Assembly: GCA_016186765.1 (NCBI GenBank)
Contig: JACPLD010000003.1
Span: forward strand, 6,121 to 70,120
Origin: Candidatus Kaiserbacteria bacterium
Lineage (GTDB): Bacteria > Patescibacteriota > Minisyncoccia > Phycocordibacterales > UBA2100
Direction of reading: 5' to 3'
Length of the DNA: 64,000 nucleotides
The translations under genes were made by a program, and so were the position numbers. Shown here piece after piece: positions 8,940 through 55,814 of the stretch (the stretch's first letter is position 1; every line of letters begins with the position of its first letter). The notes beneath the pieces are model-generated. The model saw only the letters and a program-made list of their open reading frames with translations, was not told the origin of the DNA and ran no database searches.

Positions 8940-9715
8940 TTTTTCCACACCCTTGTGTGTCAAGGTGACACCTTGACGCAAGGTTGCCGTATTATCCTGA
9001 GAATGAACAGAGCCCCTTTCGGAAGCGGCGAATGGTATCACTGCTTTGCACGAGGCATCGACAAACGGAGGACATTCGTTGACCGTTCCGACTACAATCG
9101 TTTTTTAGGGCTCCTCTACTTGTGCAACAATACCTCCACTATCCACAGAAGTAATCTCCGTTCCCCGACACTCTTTAACTTACTTTCGATGAATCGCGGG
9201 AAACCCCTCGTCGGAATCGGAGCTTTCTGTCTGATGCCGAACCACTTTCATCTTTTACTGAAAGAAATTACAGATGGCGGTATTTCAGCCTTTATGCAGA
9301 AGCTTGGTACTTCATATGCAATGTACTTCAACATGAGGCGCAACCGTGCCGGAAATCTGTTCACAAAGCCGTTTCGGTCACGGCACATCAGTGATGACCG
9401 ATACCTTCAGCAAGTTCTGCAGTACATTCACTGCAATCCAGCAGAGCTCTTCGAGCCCGGATGGAAAGATGGACGAGTTAAAGACTTATACATACTTCAG
9501 AAGAAACTGCTCATATATCCATATTCAAGTTTTGGCGCTTTCACTGACACAAGCAATGTTCTGGGAAAAATCCTTGACTCGTCGATCTTCGAAATTGAAA
9601 CTCAATTCTCGCCCGGCAAAATGCTCAAGGAAGCTCTCGAATACTATCGCGATGTCAAGGTGACACCTTGACGCACCCTCCTTGACGCACCCTTGACGCA
9701 CGGAGAATCATCTCC
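8940..9715 (+). mobile_element. IS200/IS605-family-like minimal element: tnpA (Y1 HUH transposase) flanked by identical palindromic hairpins in direct orientation
   Basis: The palindrome TCAAGGTGACACCTTGA occurs at 8960-8976 and again at 9655-9671. CCTTGACGCA is repeated three times at 9666-9700. Confidence 0.6.
9003..9671 (+). CDS. tnpA: HUH Y1 transposase, IS200-like / RAYT-like (TnpA)
   Basis: HuH motif NHFHLLL and conserved YIHCNP Tyr region; paralogous to the ORF at 37581-38243. Probable start MNRAPFG at 9003. Confidence 0.65.
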   Translation: MNRAPFGSGEWYHCFARGIDKRRTFVDRSDYNRFLGLLYLCNNTSTIHRSNLRSPTLFNLLSMNRGKPLVGIGAFCLMPNHFHLLLKEITDGGISAFMQKLGTSYAMYFNMRRNRAGNLFTKPFRSRHISDDRYLQQVLQYIHCNPAELFEPGWKDGRVKDLYILQKKLLIYPYSSFGAFTDTSNVLGKILDSSIFEIETQFSPGKMLKEALEYYRDVKVTP

Positions 9716-26174: not shown

Positions 26175-26194
26175 CCTGCCTGCCGGTAGGCAGG
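26175..26194. repeat. GC-rich palindromic repeat (CCTGCCTGCCGGTAGGCAGG), REP-like family copy A
   Basis: Related palindromes at 49422-49441 and 60978-60998, all intergenic. Confidence 0.55.
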
Positions 26195-27071: not shown

Positions 27072-27098
27072 CTATTGCATATGCGGTATAACGCTCTC

Positions 27099-28133
27099 AT
27101 GCATATACTCGGCATAGAAACTTCTGCAGATGACACGGGTGTTGCGCTCATCGAGGCCGAAGGAGAGGGGCAAGGTTTTCGGTTCAAGATGCTAGGTAAC
27201 GAGGTTTCATCGCAGGACATTCATAAAGCGTACGGCGGTATTTTCCCCACGATGGCAAAGCGCGAGCATATAAAAAACCTGCCTGCCCTCTTCGATCGAA
27301 TATTAGGGGTTTACGAAACCACTAATATCGATGCTGTCGCTGTCACCGTCGGCCCAGGTCTTGAGCCGTGTTTATGGACCGGCATTACTTTCGCGCAAGA
27401 GCTTTCGGAAAAGTGGAGTGTCCCCATCGTTCCGGTCAACCATATGGAAGGGCACATCCTTATTTCGATGACGGAAAAGGGAAGGCTCGCGAAGTTCGAC
27501 TTCCCTGCACTCGCGCTCCTCATCTCCGGCGGACACACCGAGCTCGTCTTGATGAAAACGTTCGGGCAATACGCATATATCGGTCGCACGCGGGACGACG
27601 CTGTGGGCGAAGCCTTCGACAAAGTCGCACGGCTCTTGGGCCTCTCCTACCCGGGCGGCCCCGAGATTTCCCGCCTCGCGCTCGCAGCTCGAAGCTCGAG
27701 GCTCAAAGCTGACTTCACGCTCCCCCGTCCGATGATACACAGTGACAATTACGACTTCTCATTCGCAGGTCTGAAGACCGCCGTCGAGCGTTATGTGCAA
27801 GCGCATGAACTCCATTCGCTCGACAGAGAAAAGATCGCACGTGAATTCGAAGATGCGGTGACAGATGTGCTCGTCTACAAGACGCTCCACGCCGTCGAAG
27901 AATTTGGTGTGAGCACAGTCATTATGGGTGGCGGCGTCTCCGCCAACAAACATATCAGGAGTGAACTGTCCTCAAAGCTCGAAGCTATGGGCTCGAAGCT
28001 ATTGGTGTGTCCGCCCGAATATTCGACCGACAATGGTCTCATGATCGCGCTTGCAGGATACTTCCACGCGCTGAAAAAAGATTTCATCGATCCTCAAAAT
28101 CTGAAGGCAAACGGGAATCTGAAATTGTGCTAA
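27099..28133 (+). CDS. tsaD: tRNA N6-adenosine threonylcarbamoyltransferase
   Basis: ILGIETSADDTGVAL, HMEGH (metal-binding) and GGGVSAN; Kae1/YgjD family. Confidence 0.85.
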   Translation: MHILGIETSADDTGVALIEAEGEGQGFRFKMLGNEVSSQDIHKAYGGIFPTMAKREHIKNLPALFDRILGVYETTNIDAVAVTVGPGLEPCLWTGITFAQELSEKWSVPIVPVNHMEGHILISMTEKGRLAKFDFPALALLISGGHTELVLMKTFGQYAYIGRTRDDAVGEAFDKVARLLGLSYPGGPEISRLALAARSSRLKADFTLPRPMIHSDNYDFSFAGLKTAVERYVQAHELHSLDREKIAREFEDAVTDVLVYKTLHAVEEFGVSTVIMGGGVSANKHIRSELSSKLEAMGSKLLVCPPEYSTDNGLMIALAGYFHALKKDFIDPQNLKANGNLKLC

Positions 28134-37529: not shown

Positions 37530-38280
37530 TTTACTCCTACATATTAGTGGTTTCGTAAACCACTAATATATACTGGCGATATGGAACTCTACCACGTCCT
37601 AAATAGAGGTGTAGAAAAAAGACTAATTTTTCTAGACGAAGCAGATCGGGCTCGCTTTGTCCACGACCTTTGGGAATTCAACGATACAGAAGATGCGAAA
37701 AATGTATGGTACCGAGTCTCCCAAAATAAGGGTTTACGAAACCACTATATTGAAAAGGAAAGGATTGTAGATCTTCATGGGTGGTGTCTGATGGGGAATC
37801 ACTATCACTTGCTTATATCAGAAAAGCATGACGGAGGGCTTACGAAATTCATTCGTCGGCTCAACGTCGGATACGCCAACTACTTTAACGAACGCTATAG
37901 GCGCCAGGGTACTCTTTTCCAGGGTCGCACGAGGAAAGTTCTAATCAGCACCGACGCGCACTTCTTGCACATACTGAACTACATCCATTGCAACCCGCTC
38001 GATTTCTTAAAAAACGCAGCAGATTGGAGAGAGCACAAGATTGGTAGCGCGGCTTATGCGCTGCGCTATCTCTCTAACTATAGATGGAGCAGCTACCTCG
38101 ATTACTCGGGAGTCCGGAATTTCCCTTCGGTATTGACTACAGAGCTGTTTTCCGATGTTTTCAAGGACTACAAAAAGGAAATTTCTTCTTTTCTGCTTAC
38201 AAACGAAACAAAAAGGCTGAACGGTTATCAACTCGAATATTAGTGGTTTACGAAACCATTAATATCTGTCGGAAAAAGAG
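37530..38280 (+). mobile_element. second IS200/IS605-family-like minimal element (tnpA flanked by palindromic hairpins ATATTAGTGGTTT-NNN-AAACCACTAATAT)
   Basis: Perfect 13-bp-stem palindrome at 37541-37569 and a 1-mismatch copy at 38237-38265 (contains the tnpA stop codon). A partial third copy (GGTTTACGAAACCACTATAT) lies inside the ORF at 37731-37750. Confidence 0.6.
37581..38243 (+). CDS. tnpA: HUH Y1 transposase, IS200-like / RAYT-like (TnpA), divergent paralog of the ORF at 9003-9671
   Basis: HuH motif NHYHLLI and YIHCNP; shares LNRG...R.iF.D..DR..F with the first copy. Confidence 0.65.
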   Translation: MELYHVLNRGVEKRLIFLDEADRARFVHDLWEFNDTEDAKNVWYRVSQNKGLRNHYIEKERIVDLHGWCLMGNHYHLLISEKHDGGLTKFIRRLNVGYANYFNERYRRQGTLFQGRTRKVLISTDAHFLHILNYIHCNPLDFLKNAADWREHKIGSAAYALRYLSNYRWSSYLDYSGVRNFPSVLTTELFSDVFKDYKKEISSFLLTNETKRLNGYQLEY

Positions 38281-38297
38281 AAGGGTAGGTTGCACGC

Positions 38298-38963
38298 CTA
38301 CCCTTCTTCGAGAACGATGTGACCATCGAGGCCGACGAAGCGAAGTTCAATGCCCTCGTGACTAAACGGAACATCCTCATAAGGCTCATCCCACCAGGAC
38401 TTTGGCCGCGCCGTATCGTCATGCTTAGGTTGCTTGCGATTAACTCCTTCCTGTTTGCGACGATATGCGCGCGCTTCGTACTCGAAGAGCGCCTTGCGTA
38501 ATAACTCGGCTTTGTCGAATTCGAATGATAGGGAACGCTCATGGCCGAGATACTCCGCATGCTCGATGAGTGCCCGTAAAACTTCCTGCGTTTGTAGGCC
38601 GGCCCATTCTTTTTCGTAGCGGATTGCACCGCCTGATCGCTTCACGAATATAAGGCGTTGTTTCCACAGCCAAGGCCCCTCGACATCGAACTGATAGATA
38701 TGCCCCGGATCGAGAACTTGAAATGCAGACGGGGCGGACTCTCCAAGCGCCATGCGCAACCACTCTTCGGCGTTCGCTGTCTCTCTACAGGGCAAGATGT
38801 CGTAGAGATATCGTGTCCTGTCGACAAGCGCGCCTATCAAATCGACGTTTCTGAGACCGGGATGGACATTTTCGCTGTACGGATCAGCAAGAAGAAGCGT
38901 CTGTACGCCGCCACCGAGCTGATCGAGCTCATAGACATGTCCGGGATCAATGATTCGCATCAC
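38298..38963 (-). CDS. hypothetical protein with an internal duplicated DPGH(V/I)Y(E/Q)(L/F)D motif
   Basis: IIDPGHVYELDQLGGG near the N-terminus and QVLDPGHIYQFDVEGP mid-protein; no other recognisable motif. Confidence 0.3.
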   Translation of the reverse strand: MMRIIDPGHVYELDQLGGGVQTLLLADPYSENVHPGLRNVDLIGALVDRTRYLYDILPCRETANAEEWLRMALGESAPSAFQVLDPGHIYQFDVEGPWLWKQRLIFVKRSGGAIRYEKEWAGLQTQEVLRALIEHAEYLGHERSLSFEFDKAELLRKALFEYEARAYRRKQEGVNRKQPKHDDTARPKSWWDEPYEDVPFSHEGIELRFVGLDGHIVLEEG

Positions 38964-39152
38964 TCACCTCCTCCGAGCCAACGCTCGGGTTGTGTGCTTC
39001 TCCAAGAGATTTCTAGCACGGCTCCACTTACTGCTCAACTCTCTCGCGCTCTCCTCCAGGTAGCTCAAGCAGCTCTTGCGAGGCGAGCTCGGCTTCCTTG
39101 TGCTCTACCGTCTACCGAAATCAATTGACTTTTGAAGCACATGCCGTAGCGT

Positions 39153-39845
39153 TTGCGGATGGAACAACAGATGCCCGCATGCATTGGCATAATGCTCGAT
39201 GGAAATAGACGGTGGGCAAAAAAGAATGGCCTGCCGAAACTCGAAGGACACCGACGGGGTTATGAACGAGCCCTCGAATGTGCACGCTGGGTGCGCGACC
39301 GAGGCATCAAACACCTTGCGTACTTTGTCTTCTCAACGGAGAACTGGAACCGCGAGGCTGACGAGGTTGCGTATCTCATGAAGCTTGTAGAGCACATGGT
39401 CAGTAAGAATGGTGCGCTTCCGCGTCTTTCAGAAGAAGGTATCCGTCTCCGCTTTATCGGGAAGCGTGAGATGCTTGCCGAATCCACGCAAGATGCGATG
39501 CTCACGGCAGAGAAGCAAAGTGCCCAAAATACACAGATGACGCTGTGGGTGGGTATCTCCTATGGCGGTCGAGCGGAGATACTTGAAGCGGCAAAACGTA
39601 TCGCGAAAACGGGCGAAGAGGTAACCGAAGAGTCTTTCCGAAAACATTTCTGGAGTGCGGAGATGCCGGATCCGGATATCATCATACGGACAGGAAACGT
39701 ACAGCGGCTGTCGAACTTCCTGCTCTGGCAAGCGGCGTACAGCGAACTTTTTTTCATCGATACGCTCTGGCCGGATTTCTCTGAAGAAATGCTGGACCGG
39801 ATACTTGCTGAATACAACAAGCGCGAGCGGCGCATGGGCAGGTGA
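39153..39845 (+). CDS. uppS: undecaprenyl diphosphate synthase (isoprenyl transferase)
   Basis: IMLDGNRRWA, FSTENWNR and IIRTGNVQRLSNFLLWQ. Confidence 0.9.
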   Translation: MRMEQQMPACIGIMLDGNRRWAKKNGLPKLEGHRRGYERALECARWVRDRGIKHLAYFVFSTENWNREADEVAYLMKLVEHMVSKNGALPRLSEEGIRLRFIGKREMLAESTQDAMLTAEKQSAQNTQMTLWVGISYGGRAEILEAAKRIAKTGEEVTEESFRKHFWSAEMPDPDIIIRTGNVQRLSNFLLWQAAYSELFFIDTLWPDFSEEMLDRILAEYNKRERRMGR

Positions 39846-39923
39846 AAAGAGGAGGGGCGGCACGGAGGAAAGAAAGATGATACAATCGCGGTTCGTTCTT
39901 TCGTTTTTTGAGGAGGGTCGCAC

Positions 39924-40397
39924 ATGAAGCGAAACCGTCGCGCCCTCCGCAGAGGAGTGGCGCTAATCGTCGTCAATCCTAACGGTGAGGTTTTGGTTCT
40001 GAAGGAACTTGAAGCAAAGCCTGACCTTGAAAAATACGTGGGGATTTACTCGATTCCCATGGAGACCGTTGAGAAAGGTGAGAGCGAGCAGGAAGCGCTC
40101 GCCCGTCTCATCACCGAAGAGCTGGGCGGTCTGTCGGTGGAAATCGAGTCTAAGAAGCGCGGCTTTTACTGGATCGCGCAAGACGCCCGAGCTTCACTCT
40201 ACGTTGGGCAGACTGATACAAGAGATCTACGCTGCCCCAGCAAGTCGGGCGAGGTCGACGGACAGCGGTGGGAATCCCCGCGAGAGGCTCTCAAGCTCTG
40301 GATCCGGCGGGGAGTGCGAGAAATGCTCCACGATTACCTCGCCGGGCGGCGAGGAGTGACATGCAGTCACTGCCGTTCCGTGGCTCCCAAGAGTTAG
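39924..40397 (+). CDS. NUDIX hydrolase
   Basis: Nudix box GESEQEALARLITEELG. Confidence 0.7.
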   Translation: MKRNRRALRRGVALIVVNPNGEVLVLKELEAKPDLEKYVGIYSIPMETVEKGESEQEALARLITEELGGLSVEIESKKRGFYWIAQDARASLYVGQTDTRDLRCPSKSGEVDGQRWESPREALKLWIRRGVREMLHDYLAGRRGVTCSHCRSVAPKS

Positions 40398-40433
40398 CGC
40401 GCGTGTCGGACAATCGGCTCGCGCGCGCTTTTT
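40396..40433 (+). terminator. Rho-independent terminator after the Nudix gene (stem AGCGCGCG/CGCGCGCT followed by a T7 run)
   Basis: GC stem followed directly by TTTTTTT. Confidence 0.6.
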
Positions 40434-41231
40434 TTAAAGCACGACTGTCGAACCGGGAGATTTGCCTTGCAAGGCATCCGCGAGCAAACCCGGTTTCTTC
40501 GCGTTAAAAATCACTACTTCACAACCTCGGAGCGGGAGGAGCGCGCGAAGTTTACCTCTCATTGCGCCGGTAACGTCACGGGTATGACTCGCGGCACGCA
40601 ATGTCATGCCACGCAGTGCGCTGCGGCGTATCCGCGGAAGCGGACGCTCGCCGCGGCGCGGAGGAAAATGCTCGTACACGCCGTCAACATCCGTGGCAAA
40701 GAGAATTCTCTTCGCCCGAAAATGCGCCGCGAGCGCCGCGGCGAGCGCATCGGCCGAAGCGATCGCGCTCCGGCGACCACCCAAAACGACGTCTCCACCA
40801 AGAAGCGGCACACCGCCGTGCGCAAGAATGGTTTCAACAAGGGCGTGGCCCCCAAAAACCACCTTTCCTTTTACTTGCCGCACAAGCGAACTTGTTTGCA
40901 GAGGGACGACGGGGATTCCTGCAGTGAGAAGAATATCACTTAGGCGGTTCCCAAGCTCGCGCATGGAAAGAGCGGCATGTCCCACACCGATCAGGATATC
41001 TGGCTCGAGTACTGAATTCCAAAGGCGATACCGATGCGCAAGCGGATGCCCGAAAGAGCCAGCACCATGCAGAAGAATCAGTCGCGCGTGTTTCCGCGTG
41101 GAAGCGGATGCGTGCCAGTGAGAGAGTTCTTCGACCAAACGCGTCACGAGGCGGGTTCGCAGCATTGGCTTGCCGCTCTTCTTCGCGGTAATCACGCTTC
41201 CGCCAAGCTTCACGATGATAAGCTCCGACAT
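40434..41231 (-). CDS. isopentenyl phosphate kinase (amino-acid kinase family)
   Basis: IVKLGGSVIT and LHGAGSFGH (cf. the IPK signature GGGSFGH). Start MSELIIVKLGG at 41231 sits 5 nt after the rpoC stop. Confidence 0.6.
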   Translation of the reverse strand: MSELIIVKLGGSVITAKKSGKPMLRTRLVTRLVEELSHWHASASTRKHARLILLHGAGSFGHPLAHRYRLWNSVLEPDILIGVGHAALSMRELGNRLSDILLTAGIPVVPLQTSSLVRQVKGKVVFGGHALVETILAHGGVPLLGGDVVLGGRRSAIASADALAAALAAHFRAKRILFATDVDGVYEHFPPRRGERPLPRIRRSALRGMTLRAASHTRDVTGAMRGKLRALLPLRGCEVVIFNAKKPGLLADALQGKSPGSTVVL

Positions 41232-41235
41232 TTCA

Positions 41236-44933
<3,698 letters not shown>

Positions 44934-49421: not shown

Positions 49422-49441
49422 CCTGCCTGGCGGCAGGCAGG
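49422..49441. repeat. GC-rich palindromic repeat (CCTGCCTGGCGGCAGGCAGG), REP-like family copy B
   Basis: An 8-bp stem CCTGCCTG/CAGGCAGG located between rpsP and the KH-protein gene. Confidence 0.55.
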
Positions 49442-55550: not shown

Positions 55551-55814
55551 TCATACCGGGAGATCAAACTCAATCTCCTCGACGTACCCCTCTTCCGAGA
55601 TGACAGCAACGTAGAACTGGCTCACGCTCAGCGTCACGCCGCCATTTAGCGGCGCGAAGTTGTGGCGCTCAATGACCTGCTCAAGTTCCGCGTCATCCGC
55701 GCCAGCTGCGAGGCGTTCTCGCAGCTCAGCCTCTAGTACTCCAGCCTTTGCTTGACGAGCATTATGCAGCTCGTCGCGCAATAGCGATGTCGCTTCAGCC
55801 ATAGGACTCTCCAT
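55551..55814 (-). CDS. hypothetical small protein
   Basis: 87-aa ORF upstream of rnhB; no motif. Confidence 0.25.
   Translation of the reverse strand: MESPMAEATSLLRDELHNARQAKAGVLEAELRERLAAGADDAELEQVIERHNFAPLNGGVTLSVSQFYVAVISEEGYVEEIEFDLPV

Follow-up and report, generated by a model that had tools for sequence, protein, structure and literature searches.

Among the closest described relatives of the locus analysed here are the REPtrons of Proteobacteria, in which a domesticated Y1 HUH gene (tnpAREP, or REP-associated tyrosine transposase, RAYT) goes together with cognate repetitive extragenic palindromes (REPs). For three of them (E. coli, S. maltophilia and Marinomonas), co-evolution of TnpAREP with its REP as well as cleavage and strand transfer in vitro have been described (PMC8266576). 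A class scheme with motif sets is available for TnpA_Y1 proteins (Quentin et al. 2018, PMC6006769, Table 1). REPs are also known to lie within synthetase and repair genes and to overlap the ends of RAYT genes (PMC3733652), and in-frame REPs inside tnpAREP and other genes have already been documented (PMC6006769, PMC3733652). Here we describe a Y1 gene and its hairpins in a 64,000-nucleotide stretch of DNA (the window) from a Candidatus Kaiserbacteria bacterium of the candidate phyla radiation (CPR), in which the exact protein is annotated as a transposase. We conclude that the locus is probably an atypical REPtron built on a domesticated, vertically inherited Y1 HUH gene of the RAYT/TnpAREP kind. 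A literature search found no paper on RAYT/REP systems in CPR bacteria.

The window locus shares its general plan with the E. coli REPtron. E. coli TnpAREP (RayT/YafM; subclass 2.2; PDB 4ER8) is likewise a Y1 HUH protein with a Y---NP motif encoded by a single domesticated gene, and in both systems cognate palindromes flank the gene and occur elsewhere in the genome, with enzyme and hairpin co-evolving (PMC8266576). The two differ in (i) protein length, which is 165 aa in E. coli and 220 aa in the window; (ii) the repeats, which in E. coli run to hundreds of copies with a bulge and a GTAG foot, whereas the Kaiserbacteria family has no GTAG, perfect 11-13 bp stems, a CGT loop and few copies; and (iii) the internal hairpin copy of the Kaiserbacteria family, which the E. 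coli tnpAREP gene lacks. The GT[AG]G foot of canonical REPs is thus missing in the window family, a situation comparable to the "atypical" subclasses 2.6 and 3. In a comparison at the motif level only, the protein resembles subclass 2.1 (Bertels group 1; TIRYT) in its NH[YF]H, FQ and Y[IV]HLNP motifs and SS tail. That subclass has proteins of ~220-240 aa (about 238 aa), low copy number and divergent paralogs (PMC6006769). According to the same source, no REP-like hairpins were found near its genes, whereas the window family has tight cognate hairpins. Subclass 2.1 is also reported to have terminal inverted repeats that are long and contain GGGG[AT][CG]A[CG], and helix-turn-helix (HTH) or Bac_DnaA_C-like domains at the C-terminus; the window gene has neither, its flanks being 25-29-nt hairpins, and a Pfam scan of its protein gave no HTH or DnaA domain match.

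Three further systems share single traits with the locus. Subclass 2.4 (Cyanobacteria/Bacteroidetes) also carries a cognate palindrome in frame within its own open reading frame (ORF), in a peripheral loop, but the Kaiserbacteria copy lies before the HuH motif (codons ~43-59), occupies one position in 93% of relatives and co-varies with both flanks. The IS200/IS605 elements (IS200, IS608, ISDra2), whose chemistry acts on single-stranded DNA (ssDNA) hairpins, share the fold and the hairpins at both ends of a ~0.7-kb unit; their Y---Q motif, core-only proteins of ~150 aa, multicopy and mobile state and target tetra- or pentanucleotide are all absent from the window gene. Intragenic REPs and Rickettsia palindromic elements (RPEs) are short palindromes in frame in functional genes, tRNA synthetase and replication/repair genes among them (PMC3733652). 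RPEs measure 100-150 bp and lengthen the host protein, whereas the Kaiserbacteria 25-29-nt hairpins sit in variable loops with no net change in length. New in the present family are (i) the CPR host; (ii) a subclass-2.1-like protein with tight hairpins; (iii) a near-universal co-varying hairpin triple that includes an in-frame copy; (iv) an invariant CGT apex without the GTAG tag; and (v) a low copy number with many intragenic copies.

The Y1 gene and its three cognate hairpins

The first-pass annotation had recognised, from the letters of the window, a second HUH Y1 transposase with HYH and YIHCNP motifs and an identity of only about 30% to another one in the window (copy 1). We confirmed both points. 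The protein matches Pfam Y1_Tnp (PF01797) with 29.8 bits, above the gathering score of 23 (E 7e-7), which places it within the HUH Y1 families; HYH occupies residues 74-76 and YIHCNP residues 134-139, and the identity to the copy 1 protein is 32%. In an alignment of 63 sequences, N73, H74, H76, Y134, H136, N138 and P139 are invariant, and Y75 is nearly so. The window ORF carries an intact catalytic core, and the invariance of the HuH residues and the catalytic tyrosine argues for retained catalysis. Further motifs of the protein and its relatives are LFQGR, YIH[CL]NP and a C-terminal WSSY. We found 1688 homologs, which among the matches listed are 58-78% identical and mostly of similar length; the wider protein superfamily comprises 5122 representative clusters at E <=1e-10. 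Coordinates are given in Table 1.

Table 1. Features of the window, in window coordinates
Feature	Position	Strand	Description
Copy 1 element	8959-9672	+	Y1 ORF 9003-9671; hairpin GTCAAGGTGACACCTTGAC at 8959-8977 and 9654-9672
GC-rich intergenic palindrome	26175-26194, 49422-49441, 60978-60998		CCTGCCYGSCGGYAGGCAGG, three copies
Dispersed hairpin copy in tsaD (ORF 27075-28133)	27300-27328	.	28/29 bases, in frame, encodes ILGVYETTNI
5' cognate hairpin	37541-37569	.	ATATTAGTGGTTT-CGT-AAACCACTAATAT, perfect 13-bp stem, 3-nt loop
Y1 ORF	37581-38243	+	220 aa; HUH/Y1 single-strand DNA endonuclease/transposase-like, class 2 TnpA_Y1, RAYT-like
Internal in-frame copy	37723-37751	+	core GGTTTACGAAACC, loop ACG 37736-37738, decayed, repeat family D3
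HuH codons H74-Y75-H76	37800-37808	+	inside GNHYHLL; alignment of 63 sequences
Catalytic tyrosine motif Y134-I-H-C-N-P139	37980-37997	+	Y---NP signature, class 2 TnpA_Y1
3' cognate hairpin	38237-38265	.	inverted copy, loop ACG, 1 mismatch

We modelled the protein with AF2, using the family alignment as input. The model has a predicted local distance difference test score (pLDDT) of 84.4 and a predicted template modelling score of 0.82, and residues 41-56 are its sole stretch of at least 3 residues with pLDDT <50. A Foldseek search with the model returned as the top PDB match 4ER8, E. coli TnpAREP with its REP hairpin, followed by ISDra2 and IS608 TnpA (4ER8, 2XO6, 2VJV and 2A6M at E 4e-5 to 2e-4, probability 1.00). 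A sequence-profile search of the PDB also had 4ER8 as its best, weak, match, and a PDB sequence search with the single protein returned nothing relevant.

Three hairpin copies accompany the gene, and all had been reported in the first-pass annotation. The perfect 13-bp stem of the 5' hairpin and the partial third copy within the ORF stand as described. For the 3' copy, the single mismatch and the stop codon inside it (TAG, 38241-38243, within its 5' arm) are correct, but it is the reverse complement of the 5' copy, with an ACG rather than a CGT loop; read in direct orientation it shows 4 mismatches. The 5' hairpin ends 11 nt from the ATG, in the short divergent intergenic region between dnaG and the Y1 gene. 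Folded as ssDNA, it reaches -10.4 kcal/mol (z -7.5) and the 3' hairpin -8.1 kcal/mol (z -4.8), while the internal copy folds weakly (z -2.1). The internal copy encodes N49-I57 (NKGLRNHYI; core peptide GLRNH), a surface loop that is predicted to be disordered in the AF2 model. Three sites of the hairpin pattern occur in the window, where 0.00 would be expected (none in 100 shuffles), and orthologs at six other loci (L007, L020, L022 and L029-L031) have nearly the same 5' hairpin sequence at the same place. Scans found neither a sigma-70-like promoter nor a terminator signature on the hairpins. The outer arm contains a -10-like TAATAT, but the scan found no promoter there, and with other hairpin types lacking it the resemblance is not a general one. 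The sole Rfam match was weak, below threshold and unrelated.

We then compared the hairpins across relatives, all of which lie on metagenome contigs (80 loci with protein alignment). Taking 58 non-redundant loci, we searched each for the 21-nt core of its own 5' hairpin, with <=3 mismatches allowed, at the 3' end and, for the internal copy, in codons 35-68; hairpin calls depend on the thresholds used (>=8-9 pairs, <=1 mismatch). Inside the ORF, 54 of the 58 loci have the core again, 36 of them without a mismatch; for the 3' end the figures are 56 and 40. Cores from other loci, by contrast, matched in only 0.2% (internal) and 1.2% (3' end) of comparisons, with a mean of 7.4-7.9 mismatches. The three cognate copies, in the 5' flank, in the codons of the internal disordered loop and at the 3' end, co-vary across the family. 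For example, an ortholog at the same chromosomal site with 61% identity (L025) is flanked by ATGACGGACTT-CGT-AAGTCCGTCAT and has a third copy in its ORF that encodes MTDFVSPS, and two relatives adjoining gap have the hairpins ATGATTGACAT... (L026; internal peptide DIVSQS) and ATGTTCGACCT... (L027; FDLVGRT). In each case, as with GLRNHY in the window, the internal peptide is the translation of the locus's own hairpin. The peptides are unrelated between loci and the loop is disordered; the constraint therefore acts on the nucleic acid. Accordingly, we rejected a constraint at the protein level as the cause of the internal copy, the peptides being wholly different between loci and the segment having pLDDT <50.

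The consensus of 64 unique 5' hairpins, kept for a CGT/ACG loop and taken with 18-nt flanks, reads A-T-G/T-W-N-S-G-A-Y-N-T-CGT-A-N-R-T-C-S-N-W-C/A-A-T. The loop is CGT or ACG in 60 of 66 5' hairpins; among the 64 kept, the closing pair is T:A in every one and position 6 is G:C in 60. Four GC-rich hairpins with CGT or ACG loops (L040, L060, L089 and window position 55704) were excluded as unrelated to the family. Stem differences rise with protein distance, from 0.25 of 11 positions at <10% to 1.3 at 10-20% and 4.5-5 beyond 20%, where they saturate (Mantel rho 0.17, reached by 5 of 2000 permutations). That the three copies of a locus stay alike while stems diverge between loci is concerted evolution. 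Most 5' hairpins end <=24 nt from the start codon, and the 3' hairpin overlaps the stop codon in 22 of 54. Loop orientation (CGT or ACG) varies at all three positions, even between close orthologs.

Such loop flips bear on a reading in which the palindromes are passive: host template switching would keep or flip them, ordinary recombination would spread them, and their link to Y1 would be a relic of the ends of an insertion sequence (IS). Small hairpin-loop inversion and quasipalindrome correction are known host-level processes, and the flips among close orthologs at all three positions are what they could produce. However, template switching that acts inside a single palindrome has no means of holding three separate copies identical, given that stems saturate from one locus to the next; and relic ends should decay in an immobile gene, yet the majority of internal and 3' cores are perfect. 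A compensatory stem change in a tsaD copy (L108, see below) also speaks against passivity, and we regard this reading as quite improbable.

A fixed chromosomal place

In the window the Y1 gene is divergent to dnaG, with rpoD beyond. The neighbours are identical on all 7 contigs that carry the exact window protein, and orthologs with 61-76% protein identity lie between dnaG and rpoC in L007, L020, L022, L011/L013 and L025; for a further ortholog (L012) the rpoC side alone was seen. At six more metagenome loci Y1 also adjoins dnaG. Altogether, this place is seen in at least 7 Kaiserbacteria lineages, usually between dnaG and rpoC. In the other Kaiserbacteria examined Y1 abuts rpoC, and only in the window do four genes (38298-41300) intervene; they encode a 221-aa protein without a Pfam match, uppS, a NUDIX gene and an amino-acid kinase. 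A second ortholog group comprises 23 loci adjoining gap, and another relative adjoins gatC. Identity between genomes is 70-76% for Y1, compared with 61-69% for DnaG and 78-92% for RpoC. The Y1 gene holds a fixed chromosomal place and evolves like a housekeeping gene.

This context decides against an autonomous IS200/IS605-type element of ~725 bp (37541-38265) with hairpin ends, transposing as a unit by peel-and-paste. Such an element would account for the IS200-like size and layout (hairpin, single tnpA gene, hairpin), for a G+C content of the Y1 gene of 41-50% against ~54% in the flanks, and for the Foldseek matches to IS608 and ISDra2 TnpA. It does not account for the same dnaG-adjacent place in at least seven lineages whose Y1 proteins are only 61-76% identical, or for the one context shared by all contigs with the exact protein. 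There are no near-identical copies: the element occurs once in the window, and the paralogs are 32-62% identical. The protein has Y---NP instead of Y---Q and is 220 aa long with a conserved C-terminal WSSY region, compared with ~150 aa for IS200 TnpA (PMC6006769), and no target tetranucleotide is conserved. Because of synteny, motifs and copy number we reject an active IS200, to which we would assign hardly any probability; for the same reasons, the first-pass suggestion of an independent IS200-group element is not supported. A domesticated gene whose paralogs are old shows this pattern; an insertion sequence does not.

The paralogs have hairpins of their own. Copy 1 is flanked by a different hairpin (GTCAAGGTGACACCTTGAC, compared with ATATTAGTGGTTT-CGT-AAACCACTAATAT), so the earlier claim of two Y1 members with different cognate hairpins in one window was right. 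Its 3' hairpin overlaps the stop codon, and no internal hairpin copy was found in its ORF. Downstream of that 3' hairpin, CCTTGACGCAC (one half of hairpin B) is repeated three times in direct orientation at 9664-9700. A third paralog (P0069; 230 aa, ~60% identical) lies outside the window, presumably on the same 99-kb contig; identities across the three paralogs span 32-62%. We note that some other contigs have two Y1 paralogs inside 10 kb (L063 1347-2012; L088 2425-3084). The second Y1 gene of L063 belongs to a copy-1-like family, with 5' and 3' hairpins GGCAAGGT-TCG-ACCTTGCC and no internal copy.

Dispersed hairpins and loops of equal length

The hairpins are not confined to Y1 genes. A fourth full copy in the window, which the first-pass annotation had missed, lies in tsaD (Table 1) and shares 34 nt with the 3' copy, flanks TCGA...C included. 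The hairpins are not unique to their loci, as the first-pass annotation had allowed they might be: a scan of 185,579 species genomes returned 15 stretches, and no more, with the pattern of the window hairpin (hairpin A), dispersed copies among them. Apart from the flanks of Y1 genes, hairpin A is found (i) in tsaD of L023, at the codon position that it occupies in the window, in a genome that also has a hairpin-A Y1 gene (L022); (ii) at the junction of the carA stop and carB start (L014), where it supplies ...IKGLRNH-stop; (iii) upstream of gyrA (L018), where it closes a small ORF by supplying TAT-TAG; and (iv) at the rpiB/rpe junction and at the junction of trpS with the next synthetase gene. 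We counted 17 family-type hairpins, about 1 per 30 kb, in 513 kb of flanks that were non-redundant and Y1-masked, against <1 in shuffles of a similar set. The dispersed types have 0-2 mismatches to Y1-associated types, and about half lie in frame within large ORFs (an aminoacyl-tRNA synthetase (aaRS) gene, a giant protein and ORFs of 1005, 459 and 422 aa).

Several contigs carry hairpins in clusters. On a 1.03-Mb contig (L096 9371-14904; Ga0209864_1000001), five copies of ATGGTCGACTT-CGT-AAGTCGACCAT occur in 5.5 kb near a Y1 gene, two of them inside the ORFs of 459 and 422 aa; the gene's own hairpin differs from these five at one stem pair (GGCCGAC). Tandem or inverted hairpin dimers, or REPIN-like pairs, were seen at L015 6246-6297, L068 1-55, L089 86-129 and L073 3585-3696, the first of which consists of two different variants adjacent at the rpiB/rpe junction. 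Two hairpin types lie in frame in one giant ORF of >1900 aa (L027 7584-7608 and 8109-8133), one cognate to the adjacent Y1 gene and the other identical to the Y1-associated type of L053/L057.

The positions of these copies raise the question of whether the hairpins are mainly cis-regulatory, as RNA or DNA structures acting on translation or stability of the Y1 mRNA or as punctuation of neighbouring genes, with the Y1 protein as a hairpin-binding autoregulator and with spread independent of catalysis. The short distance of the 5' hairpin from the start codon, the overlap of many 3' hairpins with the stop codon and the dispersed copies that supply stops exactly at gene junctions (carA/carB; upstream of gyrA) fit this reading, and three sites co-varying with the protein are what a specific binder would give. 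Nevertheless, the invariance of the HuH residues and catalytic tyrosine in 63 sequences points to retained catalysis; no regulatory logic is apparent for the copies in tsaD, aaRS genes and giant ORFs; and the hairpins bear no sigma-70-like promoter or terminator signature and match no Rfam family. We therefore consider a mainly regulatory role unlikely.

The copies within genes can be compared with hairpin-free homologs. Among 120 TsaD homologs, the hairpin peptide is present in three, namely the window protein, P0123 (78% identity) and P0151 (64%). The other 117 have different sequence at the site, and those equally close carry linkers that are unrelated, in some cases with exactly the same length. 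In the tsaD gene encoding P0151 (L108 1782-1806), the hairpin is ATAGTAGGGGTTT-ACG-AAACCACTACTAT; relative to the window copy, a compensatory change from T:A to G:C keeps the pairing while the amino acids change from L to V and from N to T. In an aaRS gene, L007 has the hairpin and the window ortholog an unrelated segment, with lengths differing by one residue. The presence or absence of hairpins thus differs between related genomes. Simple insertion of a 25-29-nt unit in tsaD was rejected, as hairpin-free homologs have the same loop length. The outer arms of the tsaD hairpin coincide with the ancestral I-L-G ... N-I-D codons, and the copy may stem either from patch conversion with microhomology as the primer or from an ancient insertion since decayed in most lineages. 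Such equal-length replacement raises the question of how repeats of this kind get installed.

A more speculative extension is that the three matched hairpins, beyond being remnants of transposon ends, form a self-addressed substrate set, in which the enzyme would continually rewrite the hairpins at its own gene by cutting, copying and overwriting them, including the stretch in its own coding sequence, and the same activity would overwrite variable loops of equal length in essential genes such as tsaD and tRNA synthetases. We put this forward tentatively and hold it to be rather unlikely. If true, it would amount to a mechanism of "patch conversion" that is templated and guided by hairpins and differs from insertion by cut-and-paste or peel-and-paste, and ~60 natural enzyme-hairpin pairs would encode a readable specificity code.

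Other repeats in the window fall outside this system. The GC-rich intergenic palindromes reported in the first-pass annotation exist (Table 1), but their proposed role as Y1 substrates has no support, as CCTGCCYGSCGGYAGGCAGG is unrelated in sequence to either Y1 hairpin; this candidate was rejected, the cognate repeats being the AT-rich T-CGT-A hairpins. The CCTGCCYGSCGGYAGGCAGG family may consist of terminators or be a small repeat family in its own right, and a GC-rich hairpin at 38279-38307 looks like the terminator of a neighbouring minus-strand gene. Tandem 9-nt and 30-nt repeats (GACATCATA / GACGTCGTA units) at 61988-62351 lie within the minus-strand ORF 61022-62452 and therefore encode a repetitive protein.

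A probable domesticated RAYT in a CPR host

The first-pass annotation had offered domesticated RAYTs as one of its two options, and this is the option that the data favour. The Y---NP signature, the fold match to 4ER8, the synteny, the divergent paralogs with their own hairpins and the dispersed hairpins all support a domesticated gene of the RAYT/TnpAREP kind. Several observations weigh against it: (i) the NCBIfam equivalog NF047646 (REP_Tyr_transpos) scores 43.3 bits, under its cutoff of 80; (ii) base frequencies tabulated over the 64 unique 5' hairpins and their 18-nt flanks show no conserved asymmetric flank of the GTAG-, GT[AG]G-, CGTC- or TTAC-like kind, the TTAC-like target-site signature at the left end that the first-pass annotation proposed to check included; (iii) the two flanking hairpins have no constant orientation towards each other, as L025 and the window have them inverted, L007 and L027 have them direct, and every combination occurs among 66 loci; (iv) hairpin copy number is low, with only the 15 stretches mentioned above and one dispersed copy in the 64 kb of the window, where classical REPs number in the hundreds; (v) the hairpins in tsaD and aaRS genes replace a loop without added length, unlike the prediction of simple insertion; and (vi) loop flips and stem perfection could come from host template switching at palindromes without any enzyme.

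For the domesticated RAYT that we favour, we propose the following mechanism, by analogy with the systems cited above. The Y1 protein would recognise the hairpin extruded on single-stranded DNA; its conserved residues would read the T-CGT-A apex and the G:C pair at position 6, and lineage-specific residues would read the variable stem positions. DNA would be cut and rejoined beside the hairpin via Tyr134, as in vitro with the E. coli, S. maltophilia and Marinomonas TnpAREP proteins. Hairpins copied or overwritten at low frequency would account both for the continued match of gene-associated copies to the enzyme and for the seeding of the dispersed copies, while the Y1 gene itself would no longer move.

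RAYT/REP work has been done almost only in Proteobacteria, where the spread of REPs is still unresolved. The Kaiserbacteria family offers dozens of vertically inherited enzyme genes, each with three hairpins of its own, which makes the rules of DNA recognition by Y1 HUH proteins directly testable; such rules may be of use for HUH-tag and ssDNA-editing tools. The genomes concerned are smaller than 1 Mb, yet they retain several domesticated transposase paralogs beside core replication and transcription genes, and they tolerate the repeats inside essential coding sequences.

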